A stretch of DNA of 63,629 bases, filler included, from Ionaspis alba (GCA_964255285.1; 2 parts of 2 records of this genome joined end to end with filler, not necessarily neighbours in it), one strand, 5' to 3'; numbered from the whole stretch's first letter, positions 32,729-63,629 are shown. Numbers and translations: made by a program. Notes: generated by a model not told the origin, from the sequence alone.

Positions 32729-34619
32729 TCAACAAAGAAACTTATACCACTTCTTCCACCTCGGCCAAGCCGCCTGCTCCGCCCTCTCCTCCGCCAACAA
32801 CTCGGCAAGATTCAACTCCCTCATCCCCGTCTGCAAATCCATCTCACTCGTCCTCGCAATCTTCGTCTTCTTCCAAATCTTATAGGGGACATAGAACGCT
32901 AGAATAATCGGCGCAGTGAGATAGGCCTCGAAGAAATTCATCGTGTTCTCGGTCGGAGTATTCTTCTCCCAGTCCACGGGTGCAAAGCCTGTCCAGAACT
33001 GGGCCGCGAGCACCAGCACGTTGAAGCCGAAGCCGATCCAGGAGCCGATGACACCGGGTTGGGAGCGGAAAGCCAGTTCGTCGAGGGTGCGGCCCTGGAG
33101 TTTCCAGGCTTTGCGGAAGCGGATGTGAGAGAGGCAGATGGAGCCCCAGGTGAAGATGGAGCTGAGACCGCTGAGGGCGAGCATCCAGGTGAAAGCGTCG
33201 TCCTGCCTGGGAGAAGCGGCGAGGTAGGCGAGCAGACCGAGACTGGAAGCGAAGAGGATGGCGACGAGTGGGCGGCCACGCTTATCGACGTAGGCGAGGA
33301 TCTTGGGGGCTTGGTTTTGCTCGGCGAGAGCGGCGAGGGTGCGGGAGGAGCCGTAGATGGAGGAGTTGCCGACGGAGAGGACGGCGATCATGATGACGAC
33401 GTTCATGATGGAGTCGAGGCCTTTGATGCCGGCGTTGGAGATGGCGATGACGAAGGGGGAGGCGTGCGCGTCGGTTGCGTGGGCGCCGATTAGGCGCTTG
33501 TCGCTGTAGGGCACCAGGAGGCCGATGAGGACCAGGGAGACGATGTAGAAGAGGCAGATTCGCCAGAAGACTTGCTTCACGGCTGTGGGGAGGGATTTGC
33601 GCGGGTTGACGGTCTCGGCTGCGGCGAGCCCCACGAGTTCGGTTCCGCTGAAGGCGAAGGCCGCGGTGACGAAGACGGAACAGAGGCCTTTGAAGCCGTT
33701 GTTGAAGGCGCCGGGGTCGAACCAGTACTTGCCGCCGATGTAGCTGCCGTTGGGGCCGCCTCCGATGTCGAGGATGACTCCGAGGATGCTATTTAGAATT
33801 GTCAGTATTCGCTATCAACAGCATAATCGGAAAGATGACTCACATGAAGCCAATGACCGCAATGACCTTAATAATGGCAAAGATAAACTCCGCCTCTGCA
33901 TATCCCTTGACACCAAACAAATTGATAGACACAATGACCGTCAAGAAGATTGTTACCCAAACCGCGTTCGAAACCGGCGAGCCCCAATAATCAATCGTGA
34001 TCGAGGCAGCCACAATCTCCAAAGGAAGAACAACAAGCCACTGCAAGGCATAATTCCAGCCCATTGCAAAACCCCAGGCCGGATCCAGGAACCGCGTCGA
34101 ATACGCGGAGAAAGACCCCGCCACAGGAAACGCAACAGCCATCTCCCCCAAAGCATGTACGGTACAATACAGCATGACACCGACGAGCGAAAACGCGATA
34201 AGGAGAGCAGCCGGGCCTCCATTCGACAAGGCCTTTCCGGACCCGACAAACAATCCCGTGCCTAAAAAGCCACACCAAACATCAGCATATCCACTCGCCC
34301 GAGCTCTCCTGCGCTGCACCGTACCTATCGATCCTCCGATGGCAATCATCTGCAGATGCCTCCCCTTTAACTTCCTCGACAGCCCCGTATCCGCCGTCGC
34401 CTGGTTCGCCGCCTCCACGTCGAACACCTTCCCATCGGCGCCAACGACACCCTTGCCTGTGATCAGACGCGCAGGGTCTCGCCGGAAGCCGTCCATGGTC
34501 CTCTCGAAGAAATTGCCCTTCGGGCTCTCCTCCTCGGCCTTCAAGTTCCAGGAGGACTCGAGGCGGGGGAAGGAGGCGCTTCGAGAGGAGCCGCGGGAGG
34601 AGGTGCGGCCTTTCTCCAT
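32729..34619 (-). CDS. GAP1: General amino-acid permease (APC/YAT family), 2 introns
   Basis: [60 protein letters not shown], C-terminal FLC. Orthology to GAP1 versus a paralogue is not proven. Confidence 0.9.
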
Positions 34620-34722
34620 TTTTGTAGAATATATATGTGCGTGTGGTTTTGAGATTGTGGGGAGTAGATTGGGTCGGTATATGTCCCGGTAGGTGTCAAG
34701 CTGTAGAGGATGGATAGCGGTA

Positions 34723-35488
34723 CGATAGATATGTATATACAAATGTCTTGCTCCAATCAAATTGGCCCGTAATAGTCCACGAGAGGTTTGAGAATTCGGC
34801 TTCGAAAATCCAGCCTATCCGTGGTCCAGAAGCAGCACAATGGAGACGAGAAGGCAGGATGGCAAGAGGAAGGGCGCGCCCTGTATTTATCCTCGAATCT
34901 CGTACCCCATCCGAGCAGAGCTTCCGCGATCGCAAAGTAGTGGAGCCTCTCCGTCCCTCGTTATCTCTCACGGCTTACACCCAAATCTTGGACTATCGCA
35001 GTGAGTGGGGCGAAGATTCTCCCCTATCCATGGTGCAGACGTCAAAAGAAGCAGTCTCGCGGACTCAGAACCATGGTACCTTTCCAGAACTTCAAAATCG
35101 TGCGATGGGGAGTTGTCGCAGTGGCATGAGTTGGAGAGTCGGGCGGACTTGTGTTGGAAGTACATTGTTGTATCAGCCCCGGGCCTGATAACAAGGTCTC
35201 CTTCCTCGGTTCTTTTTCCGGTCAAGGATGACTGTGCCACGTAGATCCCGCTCTGGCCAATCCTCCGATAAGTGTCACACATCCAAAGTTCCGGATCTAC
35301 CCTGGGAAATACTCGTGCTTGGTTGATTAGGGCGGCTTGGTCGATATCATGTTTCGAGGGTCTTGTGGTGAAGAATACGTATTGTGGAATGCACGACTGT
35401 GGTTGTTGCGCATGATAGGCGCATATCCTACAAGTGCGGTACCATGGAGCTTGAATTGGGGGACCTCTTGATAGAGTGATCCTTATCG
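34723..35488. promoter_or_regulatory. Cluster of HGATAR (GATA) sites upstream of the amino-acid permease
   Basis: Sites at 34723, 34961, 34993, 35186, 35266, 35413, 35469 and 35483. Confidence 0.4.
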
Positions 35489-52759: not shown

Positions 52760-54029
52760 ATGGGTCTTGGAGCTCCGCGCAAGTTTGTATAGTTCTCTAG
52801 CACGTCTTTTCGTAGGACTAATCACGTTTTCAGGCGGATAAAACTGTCCCACGATCCAAACAACACTACCTGGACTCGCTCAACCACAAACTATGGACAT
52901 AAAATGCTGTTGTCCCAAGGATGGACTCCAGGATCTCTCTTAGGAGCTGTTGACGCTCCTCATGCCCATCTCCATTCCGATGCCAATGCCTCCCACATTC
53001 GAGTCGCGCTCAAGGATGATAACCTTGGATTAGGTGCGAAGAAGGGAAGTGGGCAGGCGGCTGGTGAATGTACAGGACTGGATGCTTTTCAGGGTCTACT
53101 TGGGAGATTGAATGGGAAGAGTGAAGAGATACTAGAGAAGGAGCAAAGATCTCGTGACAACCTGAAGAGAGCATTATATACTGAGCGAAGGTGGGGTGCT
53201 CTGCATTTCGTAAGCGGGGGAGTGCTTGTTGGGGACAAGATTCAAGCACTGGCCGAAGGTGAAAGAGCAAGACTAGCTGGGAAACTGAAGCCATTAAGCT
53301 CAGCGGGACCATCTAAGGCTGATGAAACCATGGAGCTCAAGTCGAAGCGTCAGAAGAAATCATCTCATCATCCGGTGCCGGTAGTTGGGCTGCAGGCAGC
53401 CGCACAAAACGCTACAGTGGACAAGGAACCCAACGAAAACGAAGCCAACATAGATACCCCGACTCATGAAACGACTACATCAAGTACGCCTAGAGATGAG
53501 GATTCCGAAAGGAGCGGTGCTGATGAAACAAAACCAAAAGCACAAAGAAGGGCAGAAAAGCGCCAGAGGAAGCTAGATAGAAGGAAAAGAAGAGTGNNNN
53601 NNNNNNNNNNNNNNNNNNNNNNNNNNNNNNNNNNNNNNNNNNNNNNNNNNNNNNNNNNNNNNNNNNNNNNNNNNNNNNNNNNNNNNNNNNNNNNNNACAA
53701 AGAAGGGCAGAAAAGCGCCAGAGGAAGCTAGATAGAAGGAAAAGAAGAGTGGCCAAGAAGGCTGCACAATCGTTATCTACACCTACGATGTTGGTTTCAG
53801 ACTCCCAGCTTGATGATCGAATACAGAAGCCCCCGGTAATGGAAGTCCCGTCACTCGCTCCTCCTTCCGCCATTGCAGTAAGTGGCCGCCATGCTGTCAG
53901 ACAGCGCTTCATCAGACAAAAACAAATGGCAGTGATGGATCCGAAAGCTCTGAATGAAGTAAGACACTCTCTTTGTGGCCTCCAACCGAGCGCTAATCTC
54001 TGCTATAGATCTTAATGATCAAAGCATAG
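52760..54029 (+). CDS. PXR1: G-patch protein Pxr1/PinX1, 2 introns, spans a false gap
   Basis: MGLGAPRK...DPNNTTW, YGHKMLLSQGWTPG, KDDNLGLGA, GLDAFQGLLGRLNG, RQRFIRQKQMAVMDPKALNEI. Confidence 0.95.
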
Positions 54030-55282
54030 TGTGGTTATCAGCCAAATCTTCATGGCTACAATAGATGGAAGAGGGCTTTTCCAGCCGACTTTGAGTACGT
54101 ACTGCGAGCTTGAATATCGATAACAATTTCAAAGACGCGATGACTCCAGTGCAAGGTCACTTCGGCCTGTGATTAGTCTATAATGACGTCTGTGACTATG
54201 TATATATAGCTAAAATCTGCCGCTCACACCTCTGTCAGGCTCTGAAGCCTGGGCTCTTCAATATATCTTCCTTAGAGATAGCTCTGGCCTATTCGATGTG
54301 AAGATATTCGTTCACGATCTCGGAGCCTGCTCCGTCTTGGCACTTCGAAGTCTGCGATCCATGCTAGGAGACACCGTTCGCGTGTGGAGGGGTAGAAGCA
54401 TCCCCAATCGTTCGATCAGATTCCATTGTGCCGCTTCGACAAGCCATAGGGCAACCACTAACAACATAAGTGCAAGCACGCCTTTCGCCTCGACACTGTG
54501 GCTCTTTCAATCATCGACGCCCGAATCAACAAAGCATCAATGTAAGGCGTATTTCGGAATAGTCCGGTGAAGTCCTCAACGGTCCTGAATTACCCGAGTG
54601 CTGCCGAAGCAGATGGGAAGAGCAAAAGATGGAATGCCAAGCATAGATGGCCTGATAAGCAGATTTGATCATCGCCGATGCATGAAGGGATTCCCCAGTT
54701 TGATCTACAGGTGGTAGTGCGAGCCACGGAGAAGCCAAACGCTGTTGTATTTCTTTGATGCACATACAAACGAAATGATTGGATTTCCTTAAAGGGAGGA
54801 TAAATAAAGAACCCTCGCCAAGGCGCTTAGAGCTTCCCCGCAATGCTAGCGTGGAAGCTCTGTAACGAAACGTCAGCTCTAATTGACCCTTGCTTTGCCT
54901 TCCAGAGACGATCCATCAGGAGTAACGTGCTTGCCCGTCATCCACCCCTCGACACGCTCCACTCCCTTTTCACCTCGCCCTCACCATAAACAATACGTCT
55001 TGTAATCTTGCTCCTACCATCATTCCAACATTTAAACCTCAATCCCATTGCGACTTGACCACCACCTTCAGCCGAGTGCGACGCTGACAATCCCAACGGC
55101 CCGATAAGACAAGCGACCCAAATATTTGTTGAGGCTTCCAACCGTCTCGTACTTGAGACGTGTCGTACAAGAGGACGGTCGACCAAGCCGATTCATCATC
55201 GACTCGTTCTTTGGCTTCGATCAAACTGACTTGCTTTCATCACCACCTTTCCCTTTCACAATCGTCAAATAACACCTCCGCC

Positions 55283-56050
55283 ATGTCCAACGAGAACTCT
55301 CCCCCTCCCACCCCCTCATCCCCAACAGCTCGTCGAGCTTCCTTCGCACCTGGTCAGAAACTCTCCGAGCTCTTCGGTCGCTCACCAGGTAGCAGCGGCA
55401 TCCCGAGCTATCCAGGCCCGATCGCTGCAGCCGCCGCCAACGCTCAAGCTCACCAGCGCCGACGGATGTCCATCTCGACCCTCGGGCTATCAGGCTCCCC
55501 CACCCAAACCTCACCTTTCGGTAGTCTCCGCGGCAGACAAGAGAGCTGCTCCAGCACTACCTCAGGCTCACCCGGCGCAGACGAAAGCGCCATCGAAGAA
55601 GGCGACGCCGGCCCCAACAGTTCCCCCACCACACCCTTCGCACGACGGATGAGCTTCGGTGCTCGGGCATTGCGAGATGCGAGAGGAGGAGCGGGAAACC
55701 TCAATGGTAGATCTTCCAAAACCTCGGGTTCTTCCCCAAGTGTCAAAGGGCGAGGAGGAGGTTTGTCCTCAAGCCCTGAGAGCGAGTCGCTGTCGCCTTT
55801 GACGAAGATTTCTGACATTTTGGTGCGACGAACAGGTGAAGGCTTCAATTTCGGTGAGCAGCTTAGGTCCAGAGCTCAGAGGTCGTCGTCGATTACTTCG
55901 GCTCTGAATCCGCCGTCTGCGGTCCCGAGTGACCATCAGCGCCATAGTGTGGCCGTTATGGAGCCTCCGGTCAAGCAGCCTCCGAAGTCACCGAGGGCTC
56001 CGGATCACTTCCAAGAGCGGATTTTGAAGGGTGACTTCTACATGGATTAG
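55283..56050 (+). CDS. Ser/Pro-rich disordered protein with C-terminal PDHFQERILKGDFYMD
   Basis: ATG in CCGCCATG context; several RRxS sites; optional in-frame intron(s) ending at 55835. Confidence 0.8.
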   Translation: MSNENSPPPTPSSPTARRASFAPGQKLSELFGRSPGSSGIPSYPGPIAAAAANAQAHQRRRMSISTLGLSGSPTQTSPFGSLRGRQESCSSTTSGSPGADESAIEEGDAGPNSSPTTPFARRMSFGARALRDARGGAGNLNGRSSKTSGSSPSVKGRGGGLSSSPESESLSPLTKISDILVRRTGEGFNFGEQLRSRAQRSSSITSALNPPSAVPSDHQRHSVAVMEPPVKQPPKSPRAPDHFQERILKGDFYMD

Positions 56051-56910
56051 GTGAAGCGGATGTCGAGTATGTGATAATGGATCCATGAGAAACGTGTTTG
56101 TCATGAAAGTTGGAATGATCCATCCTGTCTCGAAATTGCGGAATTGTACTCGGATATGTCGCTTCAGCTGGCTTATACATCACTCCTTGCCTCAAGCCAC
56201 GGTGATCAAAGTTGCATCTTTATGTCGATCTGTCCAGATTGCAACGGGGCCAACCTGCCCTTTCTGCACAACTATACTACCATATCTTGGTACGGTCCGA
56301 GGACCACATATCTCCGACACACTGGCTGATGACCAACGACTTATCTGCTCAGTACTGCTGGCCAGTGGCAAAGCAAGGACTACAACAGAGGGTTTTGTCA
56401 CTGGTATATCGATACGATCATGACTGGCAGGTCCGGTGGTCAGGTTGGAAGGGTCCCGATGGATTGTCCCCTTTTTCTATTCGTGCTTTGTATTTTGTGA
56501 ATTATGGACTTGATGGATTGTTTGGGCACTTTAAATAAGATGTTTTCTTGCCTGTGCTATCTGCCTCCCGTTCATGCTTCAAGCGAGCAAATTTGTATTA
56601 TGAGATGATGACCGATGAAGCGAATTCTTCTTGTTACCTGCAGCAGGAAAATTAAGCAATTATTTCACAACCATCCAACTGTTCCACTGAAAGCAAGTCG
56701 TGACCTGTAGTCACAAGCTCCTAGCAAAATCATCAATCATTTCGCATCTGAACACATGGTCTACAAGTCACGTATGGGAATTACCTTCGCAGCCACACCA
56801 ACCCACTCTCAAAGTCCTCATTTCTTCAATCATCACCAGCTAAAGTACTACCCAGACCCAGCCTCCAACTTCACAAACGCCCATCTACCTCCACCAAAGC
56901 AACAACCCCC

Positions 56911-57186
56911 CTACTCAACCCACCACCAATCATCCCTCTCGAAGACCACAAAAGCCGCAATCCCCCACACATCCCTCTCCTTCGCTGGATCCACGAACGG
57001 GAAATCCTGACTCCGATCCCCGCGCTCCATCCGCCCCAAGATGCAATCAATGCACCAGCCCTTGTTCCAGAGCAGAATCCACAAAGTCTGGTGGCAGTGG
57101 GGATCCGCGCAGGGCTCGAAGAAGCCGATGAGCTCCGGGTCGACGTGCCAGCATTTGACGAATTGGTTGTGGTATTCTTGGCACAT
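56911..57186 (-). CDS. Small intronless Cys/His (putative Zn-binding) protein, array copy 1
   Basis: MC-x9-C-x-H-x11-C-x4-C-x13-CxxC, 91 aa, Trp-rich C-terminus. Confidence 0.7.
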   Translation of the reverse strand: MCQEYHNQFVKCWHVDPELIGFFEPCADPHCHQTLWILLWNKGWCIDCILGRMERGDRSQDFPFVDPAKERDVWGIAAFVVFERDDWWWVE

Positions 57187-58370
57187 GGGTGCTGGAGGAT
57201 AGGCTGCCGGTGGGTTGTGCCGATGGGTGCTGCTGTCCGTCAACTATGCTGTTCCGCTCCACGAAATTTCCACAGCCGCGTACCTTGAGCTCCTCGTCAA
57301 TGAAGAAGCGGATGCAGTCGTTGGAGAATCAGAAGATACAGTAAGGGGATCAGGGAGAAATATAAGAGGTCAGTAGAAGCTCTGGTCGGAATCGAAATCC
57401 CATATTTCTGAACCTTCTTTGCAAATATGGTACATTGTCTAACTAGCATTGTCTCTGAATCACCTATGTACAATCTATACCATAGACTCCCAAGCTAACA
57501 GAGGAGGAATTACGCAGATCACAGCCACTGTGGAGACCTCAGGCACGTCGAAAAACTCAGAGCCTGTACCCTTATTCAAAAGTGGCTGAACCTTTCCCCA
57601 AATTGGGGAGGCATATGCTCGATTCTCAAAATCAGACATGCGATATCCGCGCGCCTCGGCTCACAGCCACGTATCGCAGCGTTGTCATTCGTCATAAATG
57701 GTTGCACTAGCGCGTTGGAAACGTGGTTCGCCACGAGCTCGATGCCCCGGAACGGTATAGAGCTTTTTATTTTCAATATTGTTGGAGCAGAGTGGAGGCA
57801 TTGTCCATGCCTGCCGCCTAGTCTCGCTGCGAGATTTTGAGGATGTTCGTGAGAGGTAAGAGGGCGGAGGCGGAAGGCGAGACTCTGGAGTGCGCTCTTT
57901 CTGCGGTGTGCTTGCAAGTATGGGCGGTGTTGCACTAGCTTTGAAGGAAGTACTGTCCTAGTGCATACTATACGTTCTATGCTCGATTGGAGAAGTCACC
58001 TACCAGGAGACCCCTCGTCGGTTCTACTCACTTCCATTTCTGCATCGTCTCCTGATGCTGATGGCTTCAATTCTTCGCAGGCTGCTAGAAGCTCCTTGTC
58101 GGTGCTGTCCCATTTTAAGTAGTTGAATATTTCTGCTATCTTTCGCAGAGTCTCATTCCACGCCTCCTACATGTGTATGCCCAGCAAAATCAGCAGTGCC
58201 TCCACCCCACAGTACGACTTTCTCCTACGCTCCTGTTCAAGCAGATCCAAATGCCAGATTCCACAGCTCATATAACACAACTACCTCATCGGCCGGACCA
58301 TACCTGAAATGCTCCCTACGCTCTTCTCCTCATCTGGTCCAGTTGAAAAGAACTTTCGAGTACATATCAC

Positions 58371-58633
58371 TCAGTCCGCACTCTCCCTGTCCCCTAACAC
58401 CAGTCTCCACGCTCGCCCTTCCTTTCTCTTATCTTCTGGCCTGTTCCCCGCTTTTCTGCTCCTCTGTCGCGGTCGCCTGCGCCAGGCCTTCACAAGGAGT
58501 ACCCAAGGCTGGGGAACCGAGACTACGGCATAGGCATTCTCACAGTCCACCACGCCTTTGCATCGCTCGGTGCGTTGTGCGTAGTTCAATCCGTGTCTAC
58601 AACCGCCCATCCACTCGCTGGGCGAGTACACAC
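58371..58633 (-). pseudogene. Degenerate array copy 2
   Basis: GTG TGT ACT CGC CC(-1 nt) AGC GAG TGG ATG GGC GGT TGT AGA CAC... reads VC-x9-CRH-x10-C-x5-C-x12-W; start lost, frameshift, CxxC eroded. Confidence 0.55.
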
Positions 58634-59346
58634 TTTGATGGCGAGACTGAAATGCGTGGCTGAGAGCATCAAGGGCATGAACTCATTGGAGGGGGAATAC
58701 AGTAACCTTGTGGTAGATGGTCTGACGAGCAAGACTTTGGTATTGGTATGCTGGGTGTTCTCAGGAACAAGGAATTCTGGCCAATGGAATGCGTACAAAG
58801 AGGTATTTCTCGGAAAGGTTTGATAATACCGTGCTAGGTGTTTTTGTATGTGTCTATCTCGGAACAGCTGTCAGGGGTTTTGTCAGTCAAGTTCACTGGT
58901 GCGTTCTTGCTCCCTGAAGCTACGTCGAGCTATCGATCCTGCTGCTTGTGAAGTAAGCCAAGGAGAATTAGTGAAGTCCAGAAGCGGTGATTCACATTGC
59001 ACTGGTTAGATGCAGTTACCAAAATTCACTCTTCGTCTGCAACATTCACAACAAGAGCCAAGCAGTATGTTGGCGGTTTTGCAGATAGACTTTCAATATC
59101 TATGGGTTGGCAAGAGAGATAGAGAAGGCGACCGAATCTTCGTTTGAGATTTTGTGTCCTTGTTGCAAAGTCACGGAAGGAATACAAGATCGGTTCTGAA
59201 TATATGTGAGTGCAAAGGGGGAAATATTGACACCACAAGCGCAATATCAACACCCTTCCTGACCAACCGCCAGGTCTTCAAGCTCGACTTGCGCAACCAA
59301 TATCGCGCCTTGTCCCTCCGCATGTGGCTCTCGTTGTCTCTAGCTC

Positions 59347-59583
59347 CTAGGTGGAGGCACATGGCTTGTAGTCCTCAGCTCCTCCCTTATCTGGCTCCGC
59401 CGGCTGCGACGCTGGCCTCGATACTGGCTTCGACGCATCGTGGCATTCTTGACCGAGCCTGCTCTTTTCCTTATGCCTCAGCATGTATGGTATGCAGTTT
59501 CCCTCGTTCTTGCAAACCTCTGGCTCTTATATCCTGAGATGCTCGCCGCAAACGACGTATAGGTCATAATGTATCACGCACAT
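59347..59583 (-). pseudogene. Pseudogenised array copy 3
   Basis: MCVIHYDLYVVCGEHLRI*EPEVCKNEGNCIPYMLRHKEKSRLGQEC; in-frame TAA at 59529-59527; TATATAAG about 135 nt upstream. Confidence 0.7.
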
Positions 59584-60602
59584 CTTACTTGTTGGTTGAC
59601 TTTAATTGCTGGAATGGATTGTTGTGCTGTGGTATCAAGATCTGGGAGATAGGTAGGATCTTGTGAGAGGTGAGTGTATGAGACTGCGAAAAGGCGTAGA
59701 TGTGCGAAGGATGGGCTTATATAGCCGTCTTTGAAGGTTGGTTTGGTCATTGAAGAAGAATAAGAGTTAGTGAAGTTGGGTAGGAGCATTCACAGGTCTT
59801 CACACTCGATAGCATGCAACTTGTCAGCTCGCGGCTCACGGCCAGTTTTGTTCACGGTCATTGTGATGAAGGTGTAAAGATATTCGACTCGTAGTAGACG
59901 TACTGTATCGGACACGGAAATACAGCTGTTGTGTAATCTTATACGTTCCGTGCAGAACTCATGCAGAATTCGTATAGATACAACAAACGCAATAGACAGC
60001 ACAGATCCTGCTATTTCGCGGCACGCTCATGCCAAAACCATCCTCACTCCCACTCCTATTTCATAGTAAGCTCACTTCGCACGCCCAAATCGCTAGCGTG
60101 CTCATGTCACTCCGATATCACCCACTCTCGCTTCAAGGAGGTCTTGTGTTGCTTCTATTTCCGATCTCCTCATTTGGCCGGCTCGGCTGCTTTCTCTTTT
60201 GCCGCTTTCTCCTCTGCTGTCTTCTTCTTTGCCGCTATTGCGAAGATAACGACTGCAAAAAAGGCGTGCATAGGAAGAGAAAGTGAGACAGGCAGCGGGG
60301 AATGAGGGTTTACATAGACATATTTTTGGAAGGAGTGAGAGCGATATGAAGGGAAAGATAAGTCCTTGAGTATAGAATAGAGCATTCACACCTGCTAGCA
60401 CTTCTTCTTTGTGACCTGGATGAGTGAACGGAAGCTGGATTTGAACCAGAGGGATGCTTGATATCTGTCACTGTTTTCTGATGATTCCTCTCAAATACCT
60501 AGCCTGGTCTGGTGGAATGCTATCGATCAAGTCCAGAATGAATCTTCGCACCAATAGAAACCGGCCCTTCCTCCACTAGAACGGTCGAGAACCCCACGTA
60601 CG

Positions 60603-60956
60603 CTACCTCTCCCTCCAAACATCTTGTATGTAGGCCGGCTGCTCTGTCCGGTCACCCGGCAAAGGCGTCAAGCAGGCTAAATCGATCGTCGAATAGGCGG
60701 CCATGCTGTCTGTGATCTCTTTCTCTCTCCGCTTGAGGTCACCGATTTTCTCCTTTAGTCCCTCCTTTACTTCCTGGCACTTCCTCTCAAAAGTCTCCCT
60801 CTGCGGCTTTGTGCTCAGACACTGCTGACACTCTAAGGGACCTTGTACTGATACCTGGATTGGTTGGCAGTGCTTGGGGCTTTTGCAGTGCTGTGGGCTT
60901 TGGACAAGAATGTGACTGTGACAGTTGTGGCAAATATTGTAGGGTAAGTAGCACAT
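60603..60956 (-). CDS. Small intronless Cys/His protein with coiled-coil tail, array copy 4
   Basis: MC-x9-C-x2-H-x8-C-x5-C-x12-CxxC, then a KCQEVKEGLKEKIGDLKRREKE helix; 117 aa; GCCATG context. Confidence 0.75.
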   Translation of the reverse strand: MCYLPYNICHNCHSHILVQSPQHCKSPKHCQPIQVSVQGPLECQQCLSTKPQRETFERKCQEVKEGLKEKIGDLKRREKEITDSMAAYSTIDLACLTPLPGDRTEQPAYIQDVWRER

Positions 60957-61671
60957 GGCTGGGATGAGTAGTTCAAAGAGCAGGCTGGCGAGAAATGGAG
61001 TGGCGCTTGATGGAGGTGAACGTGGTGTTGTACTCACGATTGAGTTCGAGTCGAATGGCGAGCTGTGAATTTGGCCAAAATATGTTTTGACCGACTTAGA
61101 GTTTGAGGAAGAGAAGTGTTTGAGCAAGGAACCTGAAGTTGTCATGCAGGTCAGATATGATCGAGCTTTTGGCACATCTTCTTGGGACTCCGATAGTTGT
61201 TTGCTACAGGAGAAGCTGCCAGAACTGGCTCAGAAGCAAACAACGGTAATACTGTAGGGCCTGTAGAGAGGTTGCTAGATAAGATGCTAGGAAAAGATTC
61301 AGATAGGCTCACCAGTCACATTTCTTGCGGTATGCTGAGCTAGCGCATACCATGTGAACCACTTGTGAATATAGATATATTGTGTTGAGGCAACAAGGTT
61401 AGAGAGAGCGTAGGAGTACTTGATCTCCATTTGCTGTTAAAAAACCCCAGACTCGAGCTCGAGGGTCGAAAGAATGGTTTTCTAGACATCAAAGACACTC
61501 AGGTTCCTTGTCAATCTGTTGTGATACGTATGGAATCGAAGATGATGGACATGACGTGTGACCGACAGAATGCAGAGACGTAGAGATCCTGCGAAATCCT
61601 GCATACAAGAATCCAGAACCCGCCAGCAGCTGCACGTCCAGACAGTTTGCCAGAGCCGGCTGGTAGCTGAC

Positions 61672-62331
61672 CTATAAACTCGCCTCCATGAATCCAATCT
61701 GACGGAGCTCCATGGTGTAATGAACAAACATTTTGCAAAACATGAGAGCTAAACCTAAGTAACTAAACAACCAGACAACGAGCATAAGCTCCTGAACAGT
61801 GGCGGACAATCGACGGTGGCGGATCGCTCCTGGGTGAGGTTGTGGTAAGGCGGTTCTGTGTCTAGCGGAAGAGCGAGCATGTTGAGTTGAAGTTGCCAAG
61901 CCAAGAGACTCGATCTCGTCCTTCCATCGGACTCTCTTCTTCTTTTTACTGACGTGTCTCTGGTCACTCCCTGTATCGTTCTCTTCAAGGCTTGTGTAAG
62001 ATTGGCTGCGTCCGCTACTGGTTCTCTGAGACCGTAGAGATGCGAAACGTCCGCGAGGGTAGGACATAGAGGTAATTTCCCGAAGTATCTCTTGCCTTCG
62101 AGCGGTAGCCTTTGCTATGCAGCTTTCGCACCAGGCAGGGCCGTCTTGCAGGAAAGGCGAGATGTCGAAATCGACGGCCAGGCCGCATATTCTTCCTTCT
62201 TCATCTTGATATTTGCAGGTCTCCCTGACCATTACACTAGGTTCCGGCTGGAGCCCACCAGTAGTATGCATGTACCGAAGGTAAGCTGATCGATAATAGT
62301 TTCGGAGTACGCTCTGCAGGACCAGCTGCAT
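61672..62331 (-). CDS. Orphan with second half of the Cys motif, basic NLS-like patch and C-terminal TM (array copy 5?)
   Basis: TCK...IC...AWCESC, KKKKRVRW, LMLVVWLFSYLGLALMF; start codon uncertain. Confidence 0.5.
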   Translation of the reverse strand: MQLVLQSVLRNYYRSAYLRYMHTTGGLQPEPSVMVRETCKYQDEEGRICGLAVDFDISPFLQDGPAWCESCIAKATARRQEILREITSMSYPRGRFASLRSQRTSSGRSQSYTSLEENDTGSDQRHVSKKKKRVRWKDEIESLGLATSTQHARSSARHRTALPQPHPGAIRHRRLSATVQELMLVVWLFSYLGLALMFCKMFVHYTMELRQIGFMEASL

Positions 62332-63629
62332 GACGTTTAGATGTGTGGATACTTGGTATAGAGGCAAGGCTGCGTTGAGTGCCACCACCGTGGCATAGAG
62401 GGGGGAATTCTGGCAGGAGATGGAAGAGTGGTAGGAAACTACAGGAAGTTCGTACTTGTTCGTTCTTTTGGGCCGAATATAAAGACTCGAGAGACTGAAG
62501 CAGTAAGCAGGAGAAAGCTTGAAAGAATTGTGAATCACAGAATGAAATAGATGAAGAGTTAGACCCATGCTAACATGTTGAAAAGCCATATTCATCCTCT
62601 AGAGTATGGGCTAATATAGACAGTGTTGGCAGAGAGCTTTGATAAACTGTCCAAGGCTTCGAGGGTGCTGGCTGAATTTCTGCAAAGGCTTCATAACATG
62701 CATCTTGTATTCTTGACCGCGTCAAACGCGCGAAGATCAGTAAAATCTTGTGAAATTCAACAGTAAATCATAGAGATCGGACTCCCTATAGCAGCGATCG
62801 TGAAGTAGAGCAGTCTCCTTGGAACGCATGTTTCTCTGGTGCTTCGCAATCACTCAGGGGCCTCTATGCCATATCGCAGCTGCTGAGCTACCAACAAGCT
62901 CACACATAGTGTAGAAAGACCCAGGCAAAACCTTGATGATAGAATCTATAGTGTCTGTTGCTTGAGGTTGTCTCCAAAGATTGTTACCCCGGACCGCTAA
63001 AGCCGGGAACAGGCGGCCCCCCATCATGATTGGCCGATGTGCTCCGTCCGCACAGCAGCTGCTCATGGGATGCTGTACCTTCTTCAATCAGCAAGGGGAT
63101 CGGCAACGTTGGTTCGCCCGCCTCTTGCAAAGCTTCGGACATATCGTCGAGTTGAGTTGCTTTCCGGGCAACGGACACTAAAGATTAGACACAGATGCAA
63201 TATCTCGTAAGGGCGGGGAAGAGGCACTCATCAACTTTTGCTTCATAGTACCATCGGACATGCCTAGTCATGATGCACTACATGGATCTGCGCTGCGGGG
63301 AGCATGTCTCACGGGATCTCTGGAGCTTGCACCATTATGTTGAGAGAAAATATTAAAGTTATGGAGACATATTGATCGAGTCTGCACTTTTTCTCTTGCC
63401 ATTGCTTGTGCCTTGCTATGTCAAAGTCCAAAGATGGTCGCTTTCCTCTTCATATTTCTATTTATCGCTGCTACTAGTGCACAGCTACCAGCAGTTTCTC
63501 TCATAAACTCCCTAGTTGCTCAGCTCGGACCCGCCACGCACAAGCTAGGCGCCATCACTCCCGAGTTGATACACACTTTGGTTGAGCCAGTCACTGTGCA
63601 AATTGAAAGAAATTCTTATGTATATCGTG

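Follow-up and report, generated by a model that had tools for sequence, protein, structure and literature searches.

A tandem array of small Met-Cys genes in Ionaspis alba, probably with two intact and two disabled copies

Introduction

Do the tiny minus-strand open reading frames (ORFs) between positions 56911 and 62331 of a DNA stretch from Ionaspis alba (GCA_964255285.1) form a gene family, which of them are alive, and what might their proteins bind? The window, that is the whole stretch of DNA analysed, covers 63.6 kb (63,629 nucleotides) and is a eukaryotic, fungal-type scaffold with gaps of 100 N. The region of interest is located on a single uninterrupted contig, because the last gap ends at 53696. 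A first-pass annotation had described five loci, here named copies 1 to 5 in order of position, as an array of intronless zinc-binding genes evolving by birth and death. That observation is real but overstated. The locus is a tandem family of three to four members, possibly five, of which two are probably intact and two appear to be dead.

Results

Three ORFs start with Met-Cys and share one spacing of Cys and His residues. A six-frame regular-expression scan of the 63.6 kb gave exactly three matches to MC-x9-C-x1/2-H, at 57186 (copy 1), 59583 (copy 3) and 60956 (copy 4), all on the minus strand. The five-ligand pattern MC-x9-C-x1/2-H-x8/11-C-x4/5-C yielded the same three matches only, within 3.8 kb. 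Second-order Markov shuffles of the window averaged 0.07 matches to the shorter pattern, with three in none of the 300; the five-ligand pattern including the Met had no match in 300 shuffles. A loose version (x8-10, x1-3, x5-11 and x4-6, giving 189 spacing combinations, with stops allowed) had three real matches against a shuffle mean of 0.0125; among the 400 shuffles, five contained one match each. That the real matches cluster on one strand within 3.8 kb comes in addition to the shuffle result. The motif hence stands above the shuffled controls that had been proposed as a check, and co-oriented minus-strand loci starting with M-C and sharing a spacing are confirmed for the ATGs at 57186, 59583 and 60956.

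The second half of the motif is less widespread. The first-pass annotation had ascribed the full spacing to four copies. C-x12/13-C-x2-C has four matches in the window, two of them in copies 1 and 4; in an open frame and combined with the full motif it is present in these two of the four copies only (57186, 60956). A further motif, GDR-x5..20-DVW, has two matches in the six frames of the window, and both are the C-termini of copies 1 and 4. The shorter GDR[STE][QES] has four six-frame matches, three of them in copies 1, 2 and 4. Defined by an M-C start and C-x9-C-x1/2-H-x8/11-C-x4/5(6)-C, the family comprises copies 1, 3 and 4. Copies 1 and 4 are the only ones with both the terminal C-x11/13-C-x2-C and GDR...DVW; GDRES is left in copy 2, and copy 3 has neither element.

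Copy 1 (P0001; 56911..57186, minus strand) was identified by its translation and motif matches as an intact ORF of 91 amino acids starting at ATG 57186. Its layout is MC-x9-C-W-H-x11-C-x4-C-x13-C-x2-C, followed by GDRSQ...DVW and a Trp-rich end. An allele in an independent ENA assembly (P0004) also encodes 91 amino acids, is 99% identical with two substitutions and has an intact ORF. Copy 4 (P0002; 60603..60956, minus strand) is an intact ORF of 117 amino acids starting at ATG 60956. Its frame is open upstream to 61229, with 208 codons from stop to stop. The layout is MC-x9-C-HS-H-x8-C-x6-C-x11-C-x2-C, followed by a long helix and GDRTE...DVW. Both copies look intact and are probably functional.

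Other predicted traits of the proteins agreed with the first-pass description. An N-terminal hydrophobic stretch, as expected of a signal peptide, was not seen in copies 1, 3 and 4 when the sequences were read by eye. The tails differ as described: Trp-rich in copy 1, a long helix in copy 4, and KKKKR with a C-terminal hydrophobic stretch in copy 5. In an AlphaFold2 prediction, the helix of copy 4 (residues 50-88) was the only confident element, with block-mean pLDDT values of 75-94.

The lack of introns holds for the coding frames; the leaders may be different. Upstream of copy 4 (61037-60959, minus strand), a GTGAGT is located 81 nt before the ATG, and a CAG ends 2 nt before it. Upstream of copy 1 (57283-57192, minus strand), a GTACGC precedes the ATG by 97 nt, and a CAG ends 5 nt before it. 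Short introns in the 5' untranslated region, common to both intact copies, are possible. Opposite copies 1 and 2, the plus strand has stop-free frames of 178 codons each (56752-57288 and 58127-58663), without a Pfam match.

Copy 3 (59347..59583, minus strand) appears to be a pseudogene. From ATG 59583 it follows MC-x9-C-GE-H-x8-C-x5-C, but codon 19 (59529-59527) is an in-frame TAA where copy 4 has CAA (Gln); the alignment of the two copies runs codon for codon across the stop without gaps. After the fifth ligand, copy 3 continues with C-x16-C and has no CxxC, so it does not carry the complete motif ascribed to it. Past the stop, another 59 codons follow without interruption, suggesting that the copy was disabled rather recently. 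A sequence scan placed TATATAAG at 59716..59723 on the minus strand, 140 nt upstream of the copy 3 ATG, as a possible core promoter element.

Copy 2 (58371..58633, minus strand) is a probable relic, and apparently an old one. It was also listed as a full-motif copy, starting at GTG 58633. There, GTG-TGT encodes V-C, and the frame closes after 15 codons; an ATG and a CxxC are lacking. The remainder of the motif, C-R-H-x11-C-x5-C ... GDRES, is shifted by one base and is read in the frame that begins at 58631. The GTG-TGT is located 32 nt upstream of the first Cys codon of the C-R-H stretch and not 33 nt, which implies that one base was lost and that the ATG changed to GTG. The family pattern is found in copy 2 only across this 1-nt frameshift and from a GTG start. 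Three half motifs in the window (copies 1, 4 and 2) have NTG-TGY at 33±1 nt before them, compared with a mean of 0.005 in 200 shuffles. Smith-Waterman comparisons with shuffles gave no significant overall similarity of copy 2 to any other copy. The ORF of the second frame (58374-58631, minus strand) has a sub-threshold Pfam match to the DDE_5 transposase (E 0.016; 15.2 bits, with the cut-off at 27), which is probably compositional, given an Arg-rich stretch.

The copies have diverged strongly. A blastn self-comparison with word size 7 found no match pairing two copies (best E 1.3). Because no DNA similarity is left between the units, start codon and ligands have outlived saturating divergence. 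Neutral DNA would not keep them, and their survival therefore points to constraint at the protein level. Copies 3 and 4 are the only pair significantly alike as proteins, with a BLASTP E of 5e-5 over 10 of 35 identical residues without gaps; the Smith-Waterman z is 5.7, and 0 of 1000 shuffles reach the score. The shared Y6, P, CK and C-x-P positions noticed earlier are thus real identities. Leave-one-out profile searches were run against the 1963 six-frame ORF pieces of the window. With a profile of copies 1 and 3, copy 4 was the best non-training piece (E 0.11). Copy 1 is linked to the family by the ligand pattern, by a terminal CxxC at the distance seen in copy 4 and by the colinear GDR...DVW.

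The layout fits tandem duplication. The units follow each other head to tail every 0.95-1.45 kb. Spacings x1 and x11 are common to copies 1 and 2, and x2 and x8 to copies 3 and 4. These spacings would fit an array of two adjacent pairs, with a live and a dead member in either. A rapidly diverged paralogous family in a co-oriented tandem array is supported, and birth and death fits better than first proposed, because two of the four supposedly complete copies are disabled. Retro-duplication had been offered as an explanation of the missing introns. It was rejected: the 3' flanks that were read have no poly(A) tracts, and the head-to-tail array looks like tandem duplication.

Copy 5 (61672..62232, minus strand) is a doubtful member. 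After M-x4-C-x9-C-x17-C-x2-C come a KKKKR and, at the C-terminus, a hydrophobic segment. Upstream, the ORF extends without a stop to 62595 (307 amino acids; 308 codons from stop to stop), and this length suggests a real gene. Likeness to copies 4 and 1 is confined to a short GP-x2-C-x2-C-[IL] stretch (BLASTP E 0.11 and 0.38). Searches with the family profiles placed copy 5 in the noise, with E from 3.6 to 180 and ranks 15 to 493 of about 1600 ORF pieces. The same holds for Smith-Waterman comparisons, in which 225, 478 and 291 of 1000 shuffles reached the score. Its kinship as a fifth locus could not be demonstrated by these comparisons; copy 5 could be either a strongly diverged member or a neighbour of other origin.

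Searches in protein family collections gave no assignment. With Pfam membership defined by a score at or above the gathering cut-off of the family, copy 1 matched no Pfam-A family at E up to 1. Copies 4 and 5 and the second frame of copy 2 had sub-threshold matches only, unrelated to zinc (MerR-DNA-bind, E 0.14; DUF1924, 0.46; DUF465, 0.015; DDE_5, 0.016). No NCBIfam family was matched, and a PDB sequence search with copies 1 and 4 gave no relative. Word-based searches of protein collections with copies 1, 4 and 5 returned ORFs of the window itself (P0005, P0007) and the 99% allele (P0004) only. A profile of copies 1, 3 and 4 had three matches at E up to 0.001 among 1.84 billion representatives: P0005, P0004 and P0008. 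The latter is a protein of 797 amino acids with an internally repeated stretch and was judged spurious. In the JGI metagenomes, none of 70 candidates passed for copy 4. For copy 1, two of 44 candidates passed. Their contigs (200 and 245 kb) were taken as bacterial; the two share the word LLWNKGWC only and were rejected. These negatives do not prove an orphan family, because in the leave-one-out searches the profile failed to recover even copy 1. A wider Pezizomycotina family of hypothetical proteins starting with MC...CxH, named in the first-pass annotation, was neither confirmed nor excluded by them. Full-text literature searches gave no paper on such a family, and the impression that it is not in print rests on limited searching.

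The surroundings are those of a fungal genome. Elsewhere in the window, ordinary split genes encode a coproporphyrinogen oxidase, an MFS transporter, an amino-acid permease, a P-type ATPase, a UBX protein and a G-patch protein. The amino-acid permease (32729-34814, minus strand) consists of two long frames (32729-33811 and 33840-34814) that cover consecutive parts of PF00324; the break between them is consistent with a short intron. ORFs of both strands from about 56.1 to 63.4 kb had no Pfam family match. Just upstream of the array, a Ser/Pro-rich ORF of 296 amino acids (55160-56050, plus strand) without a Pfam match is probably the gene of a disordered protein. Between copies 3 and 4, a short ORF (60170-60280, minus strand) ends in a hydrophobic stretch and then a Lys/Glu/Ala-rich tail; it has no Pfam match and could be a further tiny gene or nothing. 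At 63413-63629 (plus strand), the window edge cuts off an ORF whose N-terminus is hydrophobic and resembles a signal peptide; the 65 residues tested have no Pfam match.

Discussion

The family, its layout and the disabling lesions are visible in the DNA itself. The interpretation that we hold to be slightly better than even is a lineage-restricted family of small intracellular proteins, probably zinc-binding, that is encoded in a tandem array and evolves by birth and death. Protein-level constraint, zinc binding and the action of a common scaffold with variable tails would be the functional side of this family. Zinc binding and an adaptor role are suggested by the Cys/His spacing, read with common knowledge of zinc knuckles: C-x2-C plus C-x4/6-C knuckles are typical of zinc sites. 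The more specific roles named in the first-pass annotation (allorecognition, meiotic drive or antidote, E3 adaptor) draw no support from these results.

The proteins would have about 90-120 amino acids, no signal peptide and an N-terminal module of about 48 residues, which starts with Met-Cys and offers seven Cys/His positions. This module may be a zinc-binding knot in which a zinc-ribbon-like site is formed by two knuckles, the C-x4/6-C and C-x2-C pairs. A second site would then include C2, C12 and the His. The variable linker and the short C-terminal GDR...DVW motif could provide each paralogue with its own partner or location. The array may have arisen by local tandem duplication, followed by birth and death. 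Copy 3 would have been lost by a nonsense change, TAA in place of the CAA of copy 4, and copy 2 would be an older relic with a 1-nt frameshift.

Several results weigh against the zinc-binding family. The motif pattern was written post hoc, when the copies had already been seen. Copy 1 is tied to the other copies by pattern only: in Smith-Waterman comparisons with copies 3 and 4, 65 and 93 of 1000 shuffles reached the score, which is marginal, and a profile of copies 3 and 4 ranked copy 1 1082nd of 1610 scored ORF pieces. Codon usage is near 0 bits per codon in all copies (-0.04 to +0.02), compared with 0.04-0.22 for 12 known genes of the window, each left out of the reference in turn. Over copy 1, the opposite strand has the higher codon score (0.134 versus 0.006). 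AlphaFold2, run without alignments on the single sequences of copies 1 and 4, gave no confident fold of the Cys module; the mean pLDDT was 58.5 for copy 4 and 50.8 for copy 1, and below 50 in the module. The conserved ligand positions are seven, and two tetrahedral sites need eight. Apart from the 99% allele, relatives outside the genome were not found in protein collections and JGI metagenomes.

Some of these points would suit other explanations. The whole array may be a graveyard of a dead or dying family, with copies 1 and 4 not yet interrupted. At least two of the four motif copies are visibly disabled, the codon usage of the intact copies is no better than that of the dead ones, and an annotated homologue was not found in large protein collections. 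Copies 1 and 4, however, keep all ligands, the ATG and GDR...DVW despite the loss of DNA similarity, and the independent allele of copy 1 is also intact. We consider a dying family unlikely. That the whole pattern arose by chance, from random ORFs and a random Cys arrangement, or as an antisense shadow of plus-strand genes, is hardly credible. The 178-codon plus-strand frames over copies 1 and 2, the better codon score of the frame over copy 1 and the post hoc motif would fit; the shuffle controls, the kinship of copies 3 and 4 and the second shared motif speak for a family, and no Pfam family was matched by the plus-strand ORFs that overlap the copies.

A different question is whether the cysteines serve disulfide or redox chemistry and not zinc binding, for example in an intermembrane-space substrate of the Mia40 type with C-x9-C. 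The exact C-x9-C in all three Met-Cys copies and the small size without presequences agree with such a role. Mia40 substrates of this kind follow the twin-Cx9C rule, but the array proteins have one C-x9-C each and not a twin pair. The ligands also include a conserved His and the CxxC and C-x4/6-C knuckles of zinc sites, and no CHCH-type Pfam family was matched at E up to 1. A redox role is thus quite improbable, and the zinc-binding, birth-and-death family remains the preferred interpretation. A bolder extension of it is a long shot: the MC module would be an undescribed zinc-binding fold with Cys2 exposed or metal-bound after removal of the Met, belonging to a large unannotated Pezizomycotina family. 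Its fast turnover would then stem from genetic conflict or self/non-self recognition (drive and antidote, or allorecognition), with the tails as specificity determinants.

If copies 1 and 4 are expressed, they would illustrate in compact form a small Cys/His module without an assigned family. With putatively intact genes next to a recently disabled copy and an older remnant, the locus is convenient for studying birth, divergence and death of tiny fungal genes, and for gauging how many tiny genes are missed by annotation pipelines. Interest is modest for now, because lineage-specific clusters of small genes are common in filamentous fungi.

Comparison with known systems

The closest leads by language-model features come from the ESM Atlas. 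Copy 1 resembled clusters of unnamed small hypothetical proteins from Ascomycota (82-113 amino acids) with a score of 0.88 and 179-189 of 256 shared features, and the module of copy 4 scored 0.80 with similar clusters; scores under 0.9 are leads only and come without alignment, E-value or sequences. The clusters agree with the array proteins in size, taxon and features, but they were not recovered by profile and word searches.

RING and PHD cross-braces use eight ligands in the order C-x2-C ... C-x1-3-H-x2-3-C-x2-C ... C-x2-C. The segment C-x9-C-x1/2-H ... C-x2-C of the array proteins resembles part of the RING spacing. Membership was rejected: the first C-x2-C and the central H-x2/3-C-x2-C are missing in copies 1 and 4, and no Pfam match was obtained up to an E of 1. 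The CHORD domain of RAR1 (PDB 2xcm_E) is likewise a Cys/His-rich zinc module, and the stretch around P-x-x-C-K-x-x-x-C aligns with it. It was the best PDB match of the family profile (E 0.074, 16.6 bits, 25 of 52 profile positions). CHORD membership needs a significant match over a domain of about 60 residues; with this E-value and no match to the Pfam CHORD family, the similarity was taken as compositional.

Twin Cx9C proteins (CHCH; Cox17/Cmc1) have two C-x9-C motifs in a helix-loop-helix. They share with the array proteins the small size, the lack of a presequence and the exact C-x9-C. Copies 1, 3 and 4 differ by having one C-x9-C only, together with His and CxxC ligands; they have no Pfam match to the family and were not assigned to it. 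Zinc-ribbon and treble-clef modules share the knuckles C-x4/6-C and C-x2-C, 11-13 residues apart, and AlphaFold2 placed a beta-hairpin over the knuckle stretch of copy 1 with low confidence. The array proteins have no Pfam, NCBIfam or PDB match and are set apart from these modules by an extra N-terminal C-x9-C-x1/2-H that starts at residue 2.

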